Positions 14,415 through 64,000 of a stretch of DNA of 64,000 nucleotides are shown piece after piece. How positions within the stretch are numbered: position 1 is the stretch's first letter; every line of letters begins with the position of its first letter. The stretch spans positions 56,730,001 through 56,794,000 of the forward strand of contig OX597823.1 of the NCBI GenBank assembly GCA_951406725.2. Direction: 5' to 3'. Both the position numbers and the translations under genes were made by a program. This stretch comes from Octopus vulgaris. Taxonomy: Eukaryota. The notes under the pieces were generated by a model. That model made no database searches. It was not told the DNA's origin and was given only the letters and a program-made list of their open reading frames with translations.

Positions 14415-14545
14415 ACAAGGAGTATATTAGTTAATAGTTTGACGCTCAGTGAAAAGGGAGAGTCTTTGACGTTTCGAGCAAAGTTCTTCGTCGGAAAGGA
14501 GAAAGGGATAAGCCTTAAGAAGGAAAAGAAGACGTGAGGATTTAT
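14415..14545 (-). mobile_element. Diverged PLE 3'-end fragment, with HHR at 14464-14498
   Basis: Reverse complement CTTT-CCGACGA-A-GAAC(TTT)GCTC-GAAAC-GTC-AAAG, followed by CTGAGCGTCAAACTA, similar to the PLE tail. Confidence 0.65.
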
Positions 14546-15967: not shown

Positions 15968-16210
15968 TGTATGTATGTATGTGTATATGTTTGTGTGTCT
16001 GTGTTTGTCCCCACAGCATCACTAGACAGCCGATGCTGGTGTGTTTACGTCCCTGTAACTTAGCGGTTCGATAAAAGAGACCGATAAAATAAGTACTAGG
16101 CTTACAAAGAATAAATCTTGGGGTCGATTTGCTCGATCGACTAAAGGTGGTGCTCCAGCATGGCCACAGTCAAATGACTGAAACGAGTAAAAGAGTAAAG
16201 GAATAAAAGA
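15729..16210 (+). mobile_element. SINE family B, immediately upstream of the PLE
   Basis: Similar to 45103-45498. Confidence 0.9.
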
Positions 16211-16667
16211 ATATATGTATATTTATGTACATATATATATATATATTTGAACTTTCAACCTTGAACTTGTTCGCATAAACTGTCCCGTTTGTTGTATTTT
16301 TATTTTCTCTTATATTACCACTTTTTTTACATTCATTTCATGCTTCCCACATTTTCCTGAATTTTTGTTCTCCTTTCCGTCTTTCTGCCCTCTCTGGATG
16401 TCCATACTCCGTTTCCTCTGCCTGCACCCCCCCTTTTTTGCCTCCCCCTCTCTCTGCTTCCCTTCTTTCTTTCCTTTTCCGTTTGCCCCGTCTTTTCTGC
16501 CCCTATCGCTTACTTATCTAGTTTTTTCATACGATTATTATTTTTTTTGTTTTTTTGAACGTTTGTTTTTTCCCCTTTTTTCGCTATCCCCTTTTTTTCT
16601 ATTTTTTTCATACGATAATTTTTGTTTTTTTTGTTTTTTCGAACGTTTTTTTTTCCGCTATCCCATC

Positions 16668-19600
16668 ATGCCGGATCCTAGGTCCTACCTCCTCACCCTC
16701 CATCACCGTTTGAAGGATCATCTACGTTCGCTTCCTGTATATTGCCTTCAGCCGTCCGTTAATCTCTCTCTACTTCTTTTTAAAAAAACCCGCTTCTCTA
16801 GCCATGTCTCTTTCCTAAGCCGCTGCCTACATCACCGACTCATCCCTAAAGGTTTCCGCCTCCACTTCCACCCTGCTCTCCACTCGGATTCTTCCATCTT
16901 ACCCATACTCCGCACCACATCTTACCGCCTTATGCGGGCCACCATTCGCTCCAATCTCTCCAAACTACATGCCATCAACCGCCTTCTTCCTCCTGCTTTC
17001 TCCACCTTCTTCTCCTCTCTGCCGCCTCTCTATGCTCCAAACACGCTACGCTTCATTATCCATTTGAATCAACTCTTCCATCAATTTCTTTCTGATACCA
17101 AACTTCGTAAACTCCAATCACTCTTCCATTCCACCCTACCCGACGCCACTACCCCAACTCCTCCACCACCCTTCTCCCCTCCCGATAGGCTCCATCCACC
17201 CACACCTAACCCCACTGCCCCTCCCTACAACCCCTTCTCCCCTCCCGTTAGGCTCCATCCACCTACACCTAACCCTACTGCCCCGCCCAACCACCCCCCA
17301 CACACCTCCCCAATCCCTCCCCCTCAGACCTCCACGAGACCTACCACCCCTCCTACTTCTATTCCACCCACCCCTTCTCCACTTCCGTCTGTTGTTACCA
17401 TTCCCCCCGATCTTCCCCTCTCTGCGGCTGAACGCTCCGTCCTTGGTAGGGGTCTGCGTTTCATCCCCCTCACTCCATCCTGTAAGGAATTCCAGACGCG
17501 AGTTGATGTCCACAGCTTTGTGCGCCGTGTCCGGTTGGGTGCGCATTACCACGACTCGCCACCCACACCCAACGAAGAGGACGACTGCTTCACTGGCCTG
17601 GGCCGCCGACCATCCCCGTGGACGCCTGCTCCTGGCCAGATCCTAGCAGTGGATCTTTTCGCGGGCGCTTGTCAGCGTGCATTGGAGCGGTTCAACTTCT
17701 CCAGGCGCCAACGCCGCCTCAACATCTCCCCGGCTGAGCTCTTGGCTCTTCGTTCCCTCCAACGGCGCGCTGACATTATCATCAAACCGGCTGACAAGGG
17801 TGGAGCTGTAGTGGTGTGGCGCGCGGACCTCTATAGGGCCGAGGCTTTCCGCCAACTCAATGACACCTCCTTCTATTCCCCTCTGCCCTCTAACCCCACA
17901 CGTAGCTACCAACAGACGGTATCCTCTACTGTCCAAGACCTCATCTCGTCCTCCCGTCTCCCCCGCACCGCATCCAACCTAATTGTGCGAACCCCACGTA
18001 CCCCCACCATTTACTTCCTCCCCAAAATCCACAAACCCAACAACCCTGGCCGCCCCATCGTCTCCGCCTGTAACTGCCCCACGGAGATCATCTCTAAATA
18101 CCTCGACCGTGTCCTTGCCCCCCTAGTGGCATCTCTTCCCTCCCACATCCACGATACCAACCATGCTCTCCGGCTTTTCAACTCTTTCTCCTTTCCTCCC
18201 GGCTCCTCCAAAATCCTTTTTACTATGGACATCCAAAGCCTCTATACTGTTATCCCTCACCACGAAGGACTGCAGGCCCTTCGACACTTTCTTGACCTCC
18301 GCTCTAACCCTGTACCTGACACCTCCACACTCATTCGTCTGGCCGAACTTGTCCTTACTCTGAACTGCTTCTCGTTCGCGGGCGAGTTCTACCATCAGTT
18401 CTCGGGAGTGGCCATGGGAACGCGAATGGGCCCCAACTATGCGAACCTGTTCGTTGGCTATGTTGAGGCCCAAATATTCTCTAATTTCACTGGTCCCACT
18501 CCTGAACTATATGGTCGTTATATTGACGACATTATCGGTGCCACCTCACTCTCCCGCGAACATCTAGATTCCTTCCTCTCTTTCGTCCAATCTTTCCATC
18601 CAGCCCTCCACTTCACTTCCACTATCTCCAACACCTCTGTCTCCTTCCTCGACATTTCGGTTAGCATTCTTCACTCCACTCTTACCACCTCCATTCACTA
18701 CAAACACACAGACTCACACTCATACCTCAACTTCTCTTCCTCCCACCCAGAACACACCAAGCTTTCCATCCCCTATTCCCAATTCCTCCGTCTACGTAGG
18801 CTCTGTAGTGACGACCATGACTTTGAGACTCAGTCTCAACGTATGGCTCACCACTTCACCCTACGTGGATACCCCCTCACCACTATCCACACCGCCCTTG
18901 CCAGAGCACGGTCCGTGGACCGTGTATCTGCTCTCTCTCCCCGAACCCGCCCTGTAGTCTCCCGCCTCCCTTTTCCCCTCACTTACCACCCCACGACTCT
19001 ACGTCTCCAACGCACCATTCTTCGAGCTTTCCGTCATCTCCAGTCCGACCCGTCCACTTCACACCTCTTCCCTAACCGACCCCTCCCCTCTTTCAAACGA
19101 GCCCACAACCTTCGAGACCTTTTGGTCCATAGCTCCTTCCCTGACCCTACCTCCCAACCCGGCTCGTTCCCCTGCTCCCGCCCACGTTGCCGCACTTGCC
19201 CTTACCTCTCCAACACCACCCGCCTCACTAGCACCCACCATCGACCCTATCCCATCATCCACTCCTTCACCTGCACCTCCAGCAATATTATCTATTGCAT
19301 CTCTTGCTCTCTCTGCAATTCCTTGTATATCGGACAAACGGGACGCCGCTTGGCTGACCGGTTCGCGGAACACCTTCGTGACATCCACCTTGCGAACGAC
19401 ACACCGGTCTCACGCCATTTCCGCTCCACCGGTCACTCCTTGCAACACCTATCTGTGTTCGGTTTGTCCTTACACAGAGGCCATCCGGATTCCCGTTTGC
19501 GCCGTGAACAGGAATTAATCTTCTCTCTTCGCTCTTATACGCCATTTGGTCTCAACTCTCCCTCCTCCTCATCTAACCCCCCCTCCCCCTCCTCACCTAT

Positions 19601-19886
19601 CCTTTCTCCCCCCCGACCCCTACTTCTTCAGTCCTTCATCCTTTCACCCCTACTCCCCTTCCCTTCTTCCCTCTTTCTCCCTCCCTCTTCCCCTTCCCTC
19701 TGCTCCCTCACTCCCTCTCTCCCTCTTTCCTCCTTCATCCCCCTTCTCCCCATCCTCTCCTCTTCCCCCTTCTCCTCCCCCTCTTCTTACCCTCGCCTTC
19801 TCTCCCCCTCTTCTCCCCCTCCCCCTCTTCTCCTCACTACACCACATGACTTTACACATCACATCACATATGATGTGCCATACTAA
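16668..19886 (+). CDS. Penelope-like element (Neptune-type) polyprotein: N-terminal domain, reverse transcriptase, Cys linker, GIY-YIG endonuclease (~1072 aa)
   Basis: Uninterrupted ORF with an in-frame ATG at 16668 (MPDPRS) that precedes the PLE N-terminal motif FLSRCLHHRLIPKGFRL. RT motifs: KPADKGG, YFLPKIHK..PGRPIVS, FTMDIQSLYT, GVAMGTRMGPNYANLF, YGRYIDD (YIDD at 18519-18530). Linker CSRPRCRTC is Neptune-type. Endonuclease NIIYCISCSLCNSLYIGQTGRRLADRFAEH, ending PFGLN. Confidence 0.95.
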   Translation: MPDPRSYLLTLHHRLKDHLRSLPVYCLQPSVNLSLLLFKKTRFSSHVSFLSRCLHHRLIPKGFRLHFHPALHSDSSILPILRTTSYRLMRATIRSNLSKLHAINRLLPPAFSTFFSSLPPLYAPNTLRFIIHLNQLFHQFLSDTKLRKLQSLFHSTLPDATTPTPPPPFSPPDRLHPPTPNPTAPPYNPFSPPVRLHPPTPNPTAPPNHPPHTSPIPPPQTSTRPTTPPTSIPPTPSPLPSVVTIPPDLPLSAAERSVLGRGLRFIPLTPSCKEFQTRVDVHSFVRRVRLGAHYHDSPPTPNEEDDCFTGLGRRPSPWTPAPGQILAVDLFAGACQRALERFNFSRRQRRLNISPAELLALRSLQRRADIIIKPADKGGAVVVWRADLYRAEAFRQLNDTSFYSPLPSNPTRSYQQTVSSTVQDLISSSRLPRTASNLIVRTPRTPTIYFLPKIHKPNNPGRPIVSACNCPTEIISKYLDRVLAPLVASLPSHIHDTNHALRLFNSFSFPPGSSKILFTMDIQSLYTVIPHHEGLQALRHFLDLRSNPVPDTSTLIRLAELVLTLNCFSFAGEFYHQFSGVAMGTRMGPNYANLFVGYVEAQIFSNFTGPTPELYGRYIDDIIGATSLSREHLDSFLSFVQSFHPALHFTSTISNTSVSFLDISVSILHSTLTTSIHYKHTDSHSYLNFSSSHPEHTKLSIPYSQFLRLRRLCSDDHDFETQSQRMAHHFTLRGYPLTTIHTALARARSVDRVSALSPRTRPVVSRLPFPLTYHPTTLRLQRTILRAFRHLQSDPSTSHLFPNRPLPSFKRAHNLRDLLVHSSFPDPTSQPGSFPCSRPRCRTCPYLSNTTRLTSTHHRPYPIIHSFTCTSSNIIYCISCSLCNSLYIGQTGRRLADRFAEHLRDIHLANDTPVSRHFRSTGHSLQHLSVFGLSLHRGHPDSRLRREQELIFSLRSYTPFGLNSPSSSSNPPSPSSPILSPPRPLLLQSFILSPLLPFPSSLFLPPSSPSLCSLTPSLPLSSFIPLLPILSSSPFSSPSSYPRLLSPSSPPPPLLLTTPHDFTHHITYDVPY

Positions 19887-20216
19887 TACACACACCAACT
19901 AATACATACTAATACGTACTAATACATACCAGTACATACTAATACTTACACCAACCCTATACATACACACGTCCAGACCCCGCATACGCACTTATACTCT
20001 CTCACACACACACACACACACCTATACATACCAATACGTACTAATACATACTAATACATACTAATACATACACCAACCCCATACATACGCACGTCCAGAC
20101 CAATCTTACGCACTAATACTCTCTCATACACACACACACACACACACACCCTTATACATACTAATACATACACCAACCCTATACATACACACATCCAGAC
20201 CCCTCCCACGCACTTT
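19879..20216 (+). repeat. Hierarchical tandem repeat in the PLE 3' UTR (10-nt ATACTAATAC units inside 3 copies of a 100-122 nt unit)
   Basis: TCCAGAC recurs at 19972, 20094 and 20194, each preceded by (CATACTAATA)n and CACCAACCCYATACATAC. Confidence 0.85.
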
Positions 20217-20385
20217 TAGCTGGTCCCTCAACCCTTTTATCAACCCTATTATCTCCCCTTATTTCGCTCTCGCGTCTCATGTTTGATCTTTGACCTCTGG
20301 CCGAAATCAGATCGCCATGTTGATTCGTTAGCTACTGCACGCATTTTTTTCTCTCCTTCTTTCTGTGTTTTTCTCTCTCTGTGTA

Positions 20386-20423
20386 TCTTTCTGTTGAAGA
20401 GCGTAGGCTCGAAACGTTAAAGA
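20386..20423 (+). ncRNA. Minimal type-I hammerhead-like ribozyme in the PLE 3' end (variant core)
   Basis: TCTTT-CTGTTGA-A-GAGC(GTAG)GCTC-GAAAC-GTT-AAAGA. Stem I is TCTTT/AAAGA, stem II is GAGC/GCTC, and stem III is the loopless palindrome ACGT. Confidence 0.7.
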
Positions 20424-20517
20424 CTTGTTTTATTTATATTTCCTGAGCGCCATACTAATACAATTGTTCGTTTGTTTTCCACCTGCCTTCGTCTTTTGTT
20501 TATTTTCATAAAGCTTC

Positions 20518-20599
<82 letters not shown>

Positions 20600-20619
20600 G
20601 TGTTTGTGTGTGTGTATTT

Positions 20620-20830
20620 GTGTGTCTGTGTCCCCTCACCATCGCTTGACAACCGATGTTGGTGTGTTTACCTGCCCGTAACTTAGCGGTTCGGCAAAAG
20701 AGACTGATAGAATAAGTACTAGGCTTACAACGAATAAGTCCTGGGTGTCGATTTGTTCGACTAAAGGCGGTGCTCCAGCTTGGCCGCAGTCAAATGACTG
20801 AAACAAGTAAAAGAATAAATGAATAAAAGA
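20620..20830 (+). mobile_element. SINE family B 3' half
   Basis: Similar to 45300-45498. Confidence 0.85.
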
Positions 20831-20968
20831 ATATATGTGTATATGTGAATTGTTGCGGAACAGTTCCTTCCTCGAGTCTGAATGCAACATATTTCTTTCT
20901 TTCTTTCTTTCTTTCTTTAGTTATTTTAAATAATAATAATAATAATGATAGTAATGATAATAATATTA

Positions 20969-21394: not shown

Positions 21395-21948
21395 GCCCTG
21401 ATGCAGTACCAGGCAGTGGCTCTCATGGCTTCTGATCTTAACTGATTGGAAGTGTTATCATGTACATTGTTTTGTCTTGTTATAAAAGATGGGCTACAGC
21501 AAATATTCTGCTCAATACCACAGATTTGCTTGTCAGTTGTTTGACCTTAACCAGTTGAGCATGTCCCTTAGTGGCTGACGATATGTGCATCTCTGATCAC
21601 GAGCAGAAGTAGTGGGGGAGCATCATAGCCATGTGTTGAGAGGGATTCTTTGGGGTTTGAATAATTCACCTCTGGAAACATGGGTGGTTCTTTCAACATC
21701 CTTAAACAACCCTTATTCAGGGACCTTTTGAGCGGGATGGGCTACTCAACCTGAAGAAAATTCTAACTGGGCCCCACAAGCAAGGTCATGTGCTGTTTAT
21801 CTTGATATGAGATCACCATGTCGCGCACATATGGTTGTGATGCATGTGCCTGGTGTACCCTTATCAGACGGGTAGTCATGATGGGTATATTGGGCTTCGT
21901 ATATTTTACCCCAGTGTCACTTTGATGGCATGCACTGCTCTCTCACTC
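21392..21948 (+). mobile_element. ~555-bp non-coding element targeting (TAA)n (copies 36263-36800 -, 36858-37195 -, 41015-41475 +)
   Basis: Four copies share sequence. The 5' end ATGCCCTGATGCA is identical in two copies. The 3' end CTCTCTCACTC is followed by a microsatellite in most copies. Confidence 0.8.
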
Positions 21949-21985
21949 AATAATAATAATAATAATAATAATAACAATAATAATA

Positions 21986-22061
<76 letters not shown>

Positions 22062-35590: not shown

Positions 35591-37809
35591 AATCAGTCTG
35601 TCTGTCTGTCTATCTAAATATATGTTTGTGTGTGTATGTACAAACACACAAACACACAGAGACACACTTATACGTATTTATATCTATATACACACTGTTG
35701 TCTTTTTTAGCATATATATCTATCAATTTCTGGACATTCTAAGCATTTACCTGAAATTGACTACGATAAAACATGCCACAAATATTACTAAAACTTATAA
35801 ACTTCAAGAAATCGAAGGAAATGCGATGTGACCTTTTCCAAGGGTTGACAATAGCCAAATTTGATACTAAGATTCTTCGGCTATTTTTGCGTTGTAATAA
35901 TGGAATAGTAATGTGAGGTGAAAAAGGTATTCAATAATGATACACTTGTTATTGTTTTGATATGATTGGTAGGCTGGTTTGGGTTGGTAGAAATATCGGA
36001 ATCAGGAATTTTGATTGATGAGTTTCTATGCCGGAAGAAACAAGTCAGTTCAAATCCCTGCTCTACACAGGTTTCCAGTTAATCTTTGGTCCAGTAGGAT
36101 TGATAATATATGTCCTGGACATGTGGTGTGATGAATGTAATGTTATCAGATTATTATTATTAATATTCTTCTCTTCTTCTTCTTCTTCTTCTTCTTCTTC
36201 TTCTTCTTCTTCTTCTTCTTCTTCTTCTTCTTCTTCTTCTTCTTCTTCTTCTTCTTCTTCTGATTGAGAGAGAGGGCAGTGCATGCCATCAAAGTGAGTC
36301 TGGGGCAAAATATACAAAGCCCAGTATACCTATCACGACTACCCGTTTGATAAGGATACACCAGATACAGGCATCACAAGCATATTTGCTCGACATGGTG
36401 ATCTTATATCAAGATAAACAGCGCATGACCTTGCATGTGGGGCTCAGTTAGAATTTTCTTCTGGTCGAGTAGCCCATCCCGCTCAAAGGATGCCTGAATA
36501 AGAGTTGTTTAAGGATGTTGAACGAAAAATTCACGTTTCCAGAGGTGAATTATCGAAACGGCAAAGAATTCCTCTCAATACATGGCAATGATGCTTCCCC
36601 ACTCTTTCTGTTCGTGATCAGAGATGCACATATCTTCACCCACTAAGGGACATGCTCAACTGGTTATGGTCAAACAACTGACAAGCAAATCTGTGGTATT
36701 GAGCAGAATATTTGCTGTAGCCCATCTATACAAGACAAAACAATGTACATGATAACAATTCCAGTCAGTTAAAATGAGAAGCCATGAAAGTCACTGTCTG
36801 GTTATAATAATAATTATAAATATTATTAATATTATAATTATAATTATCATTATTATTGAATGAGGGAGCAGTGCGTGCCATATAAGTGACACTGGAGTAC
36901 AAATATATGAAGCCAATATGCTCATCATGACTACCCATCTGATAAGGGTACACCAGGAACATGCATCACAACCATATGTGCGCGACATGGTGATTTCATA
37001 TCAAGATAAACGGTGCACTAAGGGAATGCTCAACTGGTTAAGGTCAAACAACTGACGGTGCAAATCTTTGGAATTGAGCAGAATATTTGCAGTACCCCAA
37101 TTTTTTTACCAAGACAAAACATGTATATGATAACACTTTCAATCAGTTAAGATCAGAAGCATTGAGAGCTAGTACTTAGTATTGCATCAGGGCATTATTT
37201 TTATTATCCTTGCGAGATCAATAAAATAAGTACCAGTTGAATACTGGGGTCGATGTAACCTCCTAACTCCTTCCCCCGAAATGTCTGGCCTGGTGAAAAC
37301 ATTATTAATATTATTAGGGTGACGAGCTAGGAGAATCGTTAGCAAGCCGAACAAAATATTTATCAGCATTTCTTCCGGCTTTACGTTTTGAGGTTAAATG
37401 CCGCCTAGGGCATCCTTTCGGGGTGGATGAAATAAGAACCAGTTAAGCACTCGGATCGGCAAGCATCTCCTCCCAAAATTTCAAGCCTTGTGCCTATAGT
37501 AGAAAGATAGTTATTATTATTTCGCTTGTCTGGAGAAATGAGTTGCGACGTCACAGGTGCCAAGCTGTATCGGCCGTTGCCTTTCTCTCGGATAACACTA
37601 GTGACGTGGAGAGGGGTGGCCGGTATGCATGGGCGACTGCTGGTCTTCCATAAACAACCTTGCCTGGACTTGTGCCTGGGAGGGTAACTTTCTAGGTGCA
37701 ATCCCATGGTTAGTCATGACCGAAGGGTGTCTCAGCAGATGTATGTATGTATGTATGTATGTATGTATGTATGTATGTATGTATGTATGTATGTATGTAT
37801 GTATGTATG

Positions 37810-37882: not shown

Positions 37883-38074
37883 AGGGAAAGTTTATGAAAA
37901 AAACAAAAGACGAAGACAGGTGGTGTACAAAACAAACAGATGTATTAGTATAGCGCTCAGGAATAGAAAAAGTCCTTTACGTTTCGAGCGTACGCTCTTC
38001 TACAGAAATGTACACAGAAAAAACAAGGAGAGAAATAAGGAAAGATAAAAAATGTGTGTAGTGGCTAGCGATCT

Positions 38075-44803: not shown

Positions 44804-45040
44804 CTGTAAATGAAATTGTTACTGTCATGACCGTCCCTGTTGTCGACGTCATCGTCGTCGTCGTCGTTGTCGTTGTCATTTTTGTTGTTGTTGGACCCCA
44901 GCTTTATAGCAAAAGATCTAAGCAGAACTACGATCAAAGATATTCCAGCCGTGACAACTTCGTCGTGCTATGCACTGATTCTTTTATCTTTTATTTGTTT
45001 CAGTCATTAGAAGCAAGCTACTTACCACACAGCCACTCCT

Positions 45041-45102
<62 letters not shown>

Positions 45103-45106
<4 letters not shown>

Positions 45107-45498
45107 AGGAGTGGCTGTGTGGTAAGTAGCTTGCTCCCAACCACATGGTTCAGGGTTCAGTCCCACTGCGTGGCATCTTGGGCAAGTGTCTTCTGCTATA
45201 GCCCCGGGCCGACCAATGCCTTGTGAGTGGATTTGGTAGACGGAAACTGAAAGAAGCCTGTCCTATATATGTATATATATGTATGTGTGTTTGTTTGTGT
45301 GTCTGTGTTTGTCCCCCTACCATTGCTTGACAACCGATGCTGGTGTGTTTATGTCCCCGGCAAAAGAGACCGATAGAATAAGTACTGGGCTTACAAAAAG
45401 AATAAGTCCCGGGGTCGAGTTGCTCGATTAAAGGCGGTGCTCCAGCATGGCCGCAGTCAAATGACTGAAACAAGTAAAAGAGTAAAAGAGTAAAAGAA
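45103..45498 (+). mobile_element. SINE family B (tRNA head, internal microsatellite, CR1-like tail), full length
   Basis: A-box TGGCTGTGTGG, B-box GGTTCAGTCCC, CTTGGGCAAG core and (GTAAAAGA)n tail. Confidence 0.9.
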
Positions 45499-45499
45499 T

Positions 45500-45678
45500 A
45501 TACAAAATTAAGAGGAATGACCACTAAAGTGGACACCCTATATGCTAAACATAGACGTCAAATCACCATTACCACGAAGAATGTGTTGAAAACATATTCT
45601 TCGTGGTAATGGCGATTTGACGTCTATGTTTAGCATATAGGGTGTCCACTTTAGTGGTCATTCCTCTTAATTTTGTAT
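45500..45678. repeat. Near-perfect ~88-bp hairpin with 3-nt loop
   Basis: ATACAAAATTAAGAGG...GAAGAATGTGTT-GAA-AACATATTCTTC...CCTCTTAATTTTGTAT. Confidence 0.9.
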
Positions 45679-45810: not shown

Positions 45811-46634
45811 ATATATATGAAAAAACAAGTCAAAATAGAAAATGCTAAAATAATTTTATAAAGAACATTTCATTACCGGTTACGGCCATTTTGAGACCTT
45901 TTCAACTGTAACGATTAAATAATTAAATTTAGAAAAATTAAAAGAAAAGTTTTTTTAAAGGAATATTTGTATAGTGTTCAAATATAAGTGGCATTCTGCC
46001 TTTCTCTGTCTCCCTTGTTTGCACTTGTGTGTTCGAGGCCGTTGTGAATTCTTGGTAGGGTAGAAGAAGAAGAAGGTTGATGAGGAGAAGGGGTGGAAAA
46101 ATTTGGGAGTGCCTTGATGGTCGTATTTTGAATGGTCAGTGGCGGCTAGCAGTTGCAGTTCAATTCAGGAGAATATTTCTATTGAAAGGTTTGTTTATGG
46201 AATTTGCGTAGGTGTTATACTAAAAAGCATTAGTGATAAAGTTAAGAGGTAGAAGGTGGAGAAGAAGAAGAAGAAGAAGAAGAAGATGACGATGTTGATG
46301 ATGATGATGATGAGGAAGAAGAAGGAGAACGAGAAGAAGAAGATGATGATGATGGTGATGATGATGGCGTCGATGATGATGATGATAATGATGATGATGA
46401 AGAAGAAGAGGCCTCGAACACACAAGTGCAAACAAGGGAGACAGAGAAAGGCAGAATGCCACTTATATTTGAACACTATACAAATATTCCTTTAAAAAAT
46501 CTTTTCTTTTAATTTTTCTAAATTTAATTATTTAATCGTTACAGTTGAAAAGGTCTCAAAATGACCGAAACCGGTACTGAAATGTTCTTTATAAAATTAT
46601 TTTAGCATTTTCTATTTTGACTTGTTTTTTCATA

Positions 46635-46639
<5 letters not shown>
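45811..46639. mobile_element. ~230-bp inverted repeat pair (45811-46040 / 46410-46639) carrying HHRs; inverted-pLTR-like PLE remnant
   Basis: The arms are near-perfect reverse complements ending in (TA)n. The spacer contains (GAA)n/(GAT)n. Confidence 0.75.
46539..46582 (+). ncRNA. Type-I hammerhead ribozyme, U3:A8 core variant
   Basis: TTACAG-TTGAAAA-GGTC(TCAAAAT)GACC-GAAAC-CG-GTA-CTGAAA. An inverted copy with GAAA>GTAA lies at 45868-45911. Confidence 0.75.
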
Positions 46640-57856: not shown

Positions 57857-57859
57857 ATT

Positions 57860-58061
57860 TTGATTCGCTAGCTTCTGCACGCATTTTTTCTCTCCTTGTT
57901 TCTTTCCGTATTTCTTTTCTGTGTATCTTTCTGTTGAAGAGCGTAGGCTCGAAACGTAAAAGACTTGTTTTATTTATATTCCTGAGCGCCATACTAATAT
58001 AATTGTTTGTTTGTATTCCACCTGCCTTCGTCTTTTGTTTATTTTCATAAAGCTTCCCGTT
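57860..58061 (+). mobile_element. 5'-truncated copy of the PLE 3' end, with HHR at 57926-57963
   Basis: Near-identical to 20319-20521 (TGATTCG.TAGCT...CTGTTGAAGAGCGTAGGCTCGAAACGTAAAAGAC...CATAAAGCTTCCC), followed by (TA)n. Confidence 0.9.
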
Positions 58062-63627: not shown

Positions 63628-64000
63628 TCTTTACTTGTTTTAGTCATTGGACTGCGGCCATGCTGGAGCACTACCTTTAGTCGATCAAATCGACCCCGGG
63701 ACTTATTCTTTGTAAGCCCAGTACTTATTCTATCGGTCTCTTTTGCTGAACCGCTAAGTGACGGGGACGTAAACACACCAGCATCGGTTGTCAAGCAATG
63801 CTAGGGGGACAAATACAGACACACAAACTCCCCCGCCACACACATATATATATATATACATATATACGACAGGCTTCTTTCAGTTTCTGTCTACCAAATC
63901 CACTCACAAGGCATTGGTCGGCCCGGGGCTATAGCAGAAGACACTTGCCCAAGATGCCACGCAGTGGGACTGAACCCGGAACCATGTGGTTGGTTAGCAA
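63626..64000 (-). mobile_element. SINE family B, running off the window end
   Basis: Reverse complement of family B. Other copies at ~560-670, 7195-7510, 9295-9410, 9980-10170, 26050-26470, 32545-32885, 38185-38395, 41985-42380, 47030-48005, 53378-53520, 55300-55625 and 61160-62020. Confidence 0.9.

Follow-up and report, generated by a model that had tools for sequence, protein, structure and literature searches.

The closest described counterparts of the motifs reported here are the minimal hammerhead ribozymes of animal Penelope-like elements (PLEs), which were defined by a base between positions 9 and 10.1, a G10.1-C11.1 pair and a palindromic 15.2-16.2 (Cervera and De la Pena, 2014; PMC4209133). 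Their consensus is CUGANGAH...GAAAN-palindrome-NUH (PMC4209133), and a review repeats the description (PMC6765202). PLE hammerheads with canonical cores showed no cleavage as monomers and low cleavage as dimers (PMC4209133), and single 3′ motifs are common among the elements that bear them (Table S1 in the supplement of the same paper). The hammerhead of an Anolis PLE requires the element's protein in order to cut (Frangieh et al., 2024; PMC11167929). Low but detectable activity was reported for natural A6C and U4C cores, with a kobs below 0.1 per min for A6C and weak activity in vitro for a viroid U4C variant that is nevertheless viable (Perreault, 2011; PMC3088659). A6C strongly lowers activity in Mg2+ and does so far less in Mn2+, in which A6C ribozymes reached 0.31 per min at 1 mM; in a second ribozyme A6C gave a kobs of 3.55e-6 per min in 0.3 mM Mg2+ (Naghdi, 2020; PMC7151607). 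When the CUGA turn was mutated, activity was low for every mutant but a C3-G8 swap (Roberts, 2023; PMC9901934).

The window analyzed here is a 64,000-nt stretch of Octopus vulgaris DNA (contig OX597823.1). A relaxed scan of both strands (core C[TC]GNNGA, stem I of at least 3 bp, stem II of at least 2 bp and a 4-nt palindrome) found exactly four hammerhead motifs in it (Table 1) and none in any of 100 block-wise dinucleotide shuffles. The four sites had been picked out in an earlier note on this DNA, and the scan recovered them with the same GTAG, GTAC and TTT loops, altered cores and extra A. In copies 1-3, stem II is GAGC/GCUC with loops of GUAG, GUAG and GUAC, respectively; in copy 4 it is GAAC/GCUC with a UUU loop, and the one mismatch noted there is an A-C opposition. 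Stem I spans 5, 5, 3 (one of them G.U) and 4 bp in copies 1 to 4, which qualifies the earlier statement that all four keep it. An additional A directly follows the core in all four copies, which all end in GAAACGU-H. Base 9.1, the G10.1-C11.1 pair, a loopless palindromic 15.1-16.1 and stems I and II are therefore all present, as in the metazoan PLE minimal hammerheads. Helix III is, as had been said, the loopless palindrome ACGT, which cannot close inside a single motif, and the cut sites predicted at 20418 and 57958 coincide with H17 of copies 1 and 2. Copies 1-3 have U at position 6 and copy 4 has C at position 4, while the other core positions fit CUGANGA. At 20330-20500 Rfam had no match even with E values as high as 10, and no hammerhead appeared among the 150 listed of 501 window-wide Rfam matches, which were noisy with microsatellites.

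Table 1. Coordinates of the hammerhead motifs, their host element and associated sequences in the window
Feature	Position	Strand	Remarks
Hammerhead copy 1	20386..20423	+	minimal type I; core CUGUUGA; C3 at 20391; H17 = U at 20418
Copy 1, stem I	20386-20390/20419-20423	+	
Copy 1, core	20391-20397	+	
Copy 1, U6 and N7	20394..20395	+	U6 is the departure from CUGANGA
Copy 1, extra A	20398	+	
Copy 1, stem II	20399-20402/20407-20410	+	
Copy 1, GAAA	20411-20414	+	
Copy 1, palindrome	20414-20417	+	ACGU
Copy 1, H17	20418	+	
Hammerhead copy 2	57926-57963	+	core CUGUUGA; C3 at 57931; H17 = A at 57958
Hammerhead copy 3	37973-38010	-	core CUGUAGA; C3 at 38005; H17 = A at 37978; 3-bp stem I
Hammerhead copy 4	14463..14499	-	core CCGACGA; C3 at 14494; mismatched stem II; H17 = C at 14468
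Full-length PLE	16247..20519	+	single unit, (TA)n on both sides; 5′ boundary approximate, taken from the end of the TA run
RT/EN ORF	16668..19886	+	uninterrupted, 1072 aa
Solo 3′ end with copy 2	57857..58058	+	same family as copy 1; BLAST
Solo 3′ end with copy 3	37884..38017	-	diverged subfamily; BLAST
CTGAGCG	20443..20449	+	also at 57982 (+), 37960 (-) and 14449 (-); shortly past the cut site of all four hammerheads

The window looks like invertebrate DNA rich in microsatellites, and masked BLAST was used to relate the copies. Copy 1 matched copy 2 at 92% over 205 nt and copy 3 at 80% over 121 nt, whereas the region of copy 4 matched none of the other three. The four copies are thus two families (copies 1-3 and copy 4) and not the single conserved PLE family first proposed. 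Copy 4 has no PLE ORF attached and resembles the others only in the hammerhead and a short downstream motif; it is probably the decayed solo end of another family.

Copy 1 lies about 500 nt downstream of the intact ORF of a full-length PLE, in the element's 3′ end. The predicted protein carries DKG, the RT motifs DIQSLY, AMGT and YIDD, as well as an endonuclease of the GIY-YIG type at the C terminus (NIIY...YIGQT), with a CX4CxxC linker (CSRPRCRTC at residue 836) between RT and EN. Pfam RVT_1 matched it with E = 4.6e-08 and GIY-YIG did not score on it; its homologues carry PF00078, and some carry PF01541. These traits fit an endonuclease-bearing PLE of the Neptune/Nematis type by published clade features, namely a CX2-5CxxC linker and (TA)n insertion (Craig et al., 2021; PMC8557442), an assignment that covers both clades. 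No upstream copy of the 3′ end (upstream pseudo-LTR) was found at the copy 1 locus, which therefore has no tandem or two-pseudo-LTR layout; tandem or partial-tandem arrangements are present in the related loci L095, L103, L116 and L117. The sequence GCCATACTAATACA occurs twice, at the ORF stop (19877-19890) and just past the hammerhead (20449-20462), and three imperfect repeats rich in AC (19902-20218) lie in the 3′ UTR that separates the two sites. The element is flanked on both sides by a SINE-like repeat of ~240 nt (15982-16222, 20609-20842, 45276-45502, 63630-63828 and about eight more places in the window), and a short interspersed repeat of the window may be akin to octopus SINEs. Elsewhere in the window are a perfect inverted repeat centered on (TA)n (45013-45134), a MITE-like inverted pair of 230 nt that is 98% complementary with 369 nt between its arms (45811-46040 with 46410-46639), and an inverted pair of 554 nt that is 86% complementary (21487-22040 with 36174-36727).

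Like the metazoan PLE minimal hammerheads, the window motif sits in a pseudo-LTR 3′ of an RT/GIY-YIG ORF and has the 9.1 base, the G10.1-C11.1 pair, a palindromic helix III, a short stem I, a U-rich 5′ flank, mostly solo truncated copies and dimer-type folding (PMC4209133). It had been termed non-canonical and obligately dimeric. Its extra base, its palindromic helix III without a loop and cleavage restricted to dimers do not make it non-canonical, because all of these belong to the published consensus, and 48 of the 54 motifs that we found in related loci (see below) have the extra base. The difference lies in the core: the 56 motifs in Figure S3 of PMC4209133 have A6 and U4, both of them fixed by the search descriptor, whereas U6 is found here in copies 1-3 and C4 in copy 4. 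Because the core does not conform to CUGANGA, the motif is filed as a variant of the PLE minimal hammerhead. In all else it is an ordinary minimal hammerhead, lying in the pseudo-LTR of a PLE that bears an endonuclease; A6U is its sole unusual point, the rest having been described already. The Neptune example of Acropora digitifera (CUGACGAA GGGC UAAC GCUC) shares the GCUC 3′ strand of stem II and the CGU end (PMC4209133). The A6C hammerhead of phage Bcep176 shares a natural pyrimidine at position 6, but it is a single phage motif with C6 that cleaves, at a low rate in Mg2+ and better in Mn2+ (PMC3088659, PMC7151607), while the octopus motif has U6 fixed in an abundant animal retroelement family and lacks helix III. 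No natural A6U hammerhead was found in the open literature searched; the alignments of Lünse, Weinberg and Breaker (2017), outside that body, could contain U6. None was present in the supplement of Craig et al. (2021) or in the available portions of PMC11014351, PMC10085705, PMC6466107, PMC6155905 and bioRxiv 10.64898/2026.07.22.740005, and the open literature searched gave no report of U4C in PLE hammerheads.

Half or more of the words sampled from the element occur in each of 20 sequencing runs, which carry five organism labels. Contigs of four of these runs (four organism labels) were aligned to 20290-20545 at 80% likeness, and letters reaching at least 2% of depth were recorded; the resulting figures are depth-weighted contig values, not copy counts. 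Another letter was seen at 22 of 225 covered positions. Within the core and extra A (20391-20398) the sole variable position was N7 (20395), which showed all four letters in all four runs, with A at 9-32%, C at 10-25% and G at 6-15% of summed depth, and it was the only position in the stretch with three alternatives. At position 6 (20394) no other letter reached 2% in any of the four runs, and C3, U4, G5, G8, A9 and GAAA were likewise without a variant. The lack of a variant at 20394 is weak evidence on its own, because only 22 of 225 positions vary at all; it is the neighboring position 7, which took all four letters while U6 stayed, that marks U6 as a maintained family trait and not as decay. 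Position 6 is fixed as U in the family of copies 1-3, and A6U is a true departure at the level of the family, as the earlier note had supposed. H17 was mostly A (59-87%) and otherwise U, with no G recorded. A freely varying N7 together with an H17 without recorded G is the tolerance pattern of a hammerhead. Small fractions of C>T at 20402, which keeps the pair as U.G, and of G>A at 20416, which breaks the palindrome, fit CpG decay. Hundreds of contigs match the 40-nt motif alone and then run into other flanks; in two runs, 202 and 277 loose ends lay before 20387 and 338 and 377 lay behind 20426.

A protein search with the window protein gave 1938 matches among 8000 candidates, and the query was aligned with 61 of the 120 listed. 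With this alignment, relatives were fetched as 80 of 484 confirmed metagenome loci and 47 loci from genome contigs, and these, with one unrelated viral locus, made up 128 loci that were scanned for hammerheads with one core change allowed. The scan returned 54 motifs, a count in which some of the loci overlap on one contig; each of 10 shuffles gave 0-1. U4C was present in 8 of the 54 (five from one assembly, two from one metagenome and one from another), U3-A8 in two and A6G in one; A6U was present in none. The claim that the altered core is unusual therefore holds for A6U but not for U4C, which belongs here to another family. The U4C cores (CCGACGA, CCGAAGA) come from loci L032, L082, L083, L085, L086, L087, L018 and L030. 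Forty loci retained the end of the ORF and at least 150 nt downstream; a motif lay within 1.2 kb in 24 and none in 16. With two core changes allowed, the 24 cores were canonical in 18 cases, CCGACGA in five and A6G in one, with no A6U. A tree built from the window protein and the 24 loci placed the window beside a single locus with a canonical core and the CCGACGA clade (support 0.78), so that U6 probably arose secondarily in this lineage. The CCGACGA Neptune-type loci (L032, L082, L083, L085 and L087) encode RT-EN proteins 48-57% identical to that of the window, share the 4-bp stem II with a GCUC 3′ strand and the GAAACGU end, and have the very core of copy 4. They differ in having A6, a 3-bp GCU/AGC stem I and no CTGAGCG within 48 nt behind their cut sites. 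Hammerhead-bearing PLEs were also seen in contigs filed as bacterial assemblies (L082-L087, L093-L095, L098 and others), which are most likely animal host DNA contaminating the bins.

The stems were examined in 21 aligned motifs, four from the window and 17 of the 54. In these, 93% of cells pair, 9 of 11 pairs show two-sided changes and the covariation score was reached by none of 500 shuffles, a result that is partly circular because the 17 outside motifs came from a scan requiring stems. Among the four window copies there was no compensatory (two-sided) stem change, and within the U6 family none was seen in copies or run contigs. No related PLEs were found in viral contigs, and the pattern GCTCGAAACGTHAARGAC had one viral-contig match, which lacked the core. 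A U6-core pattern gave at least 173 matches in the prokaryote and viral collections, of which two had both stems of at least 3 bp and an allowed H17 and were taken as chance; a family-specific pattern with any base at position 6 had no match in either collection.

As established for the class, two motifs in the transcript of a tandem array would form a double hammerhead, joined by their ACGU sequences and with the stem I strands exchanged, which would then cut after H17; the octopus motifs may follow the same route. It does not follow that two RNAs or tandem copies must pair to process the element, as had been asserted. That statement lacks support because no copy has a nearby same-strand partner in cis (copies 1 and 2 are 37.5 kb apart and copies 3 and 4 are 23.5 kb apart) and because the Anolis PLE inserts in vitro without cleavage (PMC11167929). 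The window copies, having no close partner, are probably silent passengers. For the family, the reading that we favor, at somewhat better than even confidence, is that the U6 motif would cut slowly, as an attenuated ribozyme that works only in dimers and probably depends on the protein of the element itself, by analogy with the natural core variants and the Anolis element. When the isolated motif was folded, stem II had a probability of about 1.0 in copies 1-3 and of 0.39 or less in copy 4; with flanks it ranged from 0.05 to 0.84 in copies 1-3. Against this reading, canonical-core PLE motifs are already poor cleavers, so that A6U on top of this could mean no activity at all, and the inactive monomer hairpin was predicted to beat the active dimer by 5.7-6.7 kcal/mol in copies 1-3, although it also did so by 2.5-13.5 kcal/mol in canonical-core relatives. 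The very low A6C rate in 0.3 mM Mg2+ and the absence of compensatory changes within the family speak against it too.

Unlikely, though the first of the alternatives to be weighed, is a catalytically dead vestige in which cleavage was lost when A6 became U, amplification continued as cleavage is dispensable, and the motif was kept either by common descent or because it serves something else, whether protein binding, promoter function or RNA structure. In favor of this, mutations of the CUGA turn generally remove most of the activity (PMC9901934). In vitro, insertion of the Anolis PLE is normal when its hammerhead is mutated, and RNA-seq reads ending at its cut site were not found (PMC11167929), and Naiad elements reach very high copy numbers without canonical hammerheads (PMC8557442). 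Folding also predicts that U6 permits pairing of U4-G5-U6 with A15.1-C-G in the monomer. We rejected U6 as a special monomer lock, as the inhibitory pairings of canonical-core relatives are at least as strong and the effect varies with N7; a role of the core as splice acceptor was likewise rejected, YAG being there in copy 3 only. Against a vestige, position 7 drifted to four letters while the catalytic positions and GAAA did not vary and H17 showed no G. This drift, and the hundreds of contigs that match just the 40-nt motif, indicate that constraint follows the catalytic pattern.

Less probable still is a fully active variant, which would cut like canonical PLE motifs with the A6U defect rescued through a preference for another metal, through the element's protein or through the downstream CUGAGCG. 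Natural A6C cuts well in Mn2+ (PMC7151607), which would serve as a precedent, and U6 is held across subfamilies where N7 is saturated. CTGAGCG is kept behind all four copies, these sites being four of the seven CTGAGCG in the window, and the fuller motif CTGAGCG...ACTA(A/T)TA (20443-20462 in copy 1) follows all four as well, including the otherwise unrelated copy 4. CTGAGCG is the complement of stem II in its 3′ strand, and the fuller motif had no variant in contigs of the four runs. We tried the downstream CUGAGCG as the true core of a permuted hammerhead (type II or GSC order) and rejected it, as it is not CUGANGA and no stem II strand comes after it; in the permuted block CUGAnGA is directly flanked by stem I and stem II strands (PMC10085705). 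Its pairing with stem II, predicted at a probability of 0.33 at most, would block folding, and no compensating core change was seen, both of which speak against full activity. That A6U is decay or an assembly error in particular copies, with A6 in the working members, is scarcely credible: truncated solo ends make up two of the three U6 copies and stem II of copy 4 looks decayed, but the copy that retains an intact ORF has U6, as does one that is 20% diverged from it, and the absence of T>A at 20394 from all four runs largely refutes it.

Returning to the slow dimeric ribozyme, we regard as possible, if doubtful, the further proposal that a natural U6 hammerhead cleaves as a dimer, perhaps only in Mn2+ or given the element's protein, and that selection acts on it in a retroelement family that is abundant and was recently active. 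PLE hammerheads may be a processing signal or a dispensable passenger, and a family that combines a damaging-looking fixed core change with an intact ORF and many copies offers a simple natural test of their role. If the U6 motif does not cut, cleavage would be dispensable in vivo and the motif would be retained for something else. If it does cut as a dimer, the core consensus would widen, and search descriptors would need broadening with it; searches based on CUGANGA would then miss whole PLE families, and some elements reported to be without hammerheads may carry such variants.
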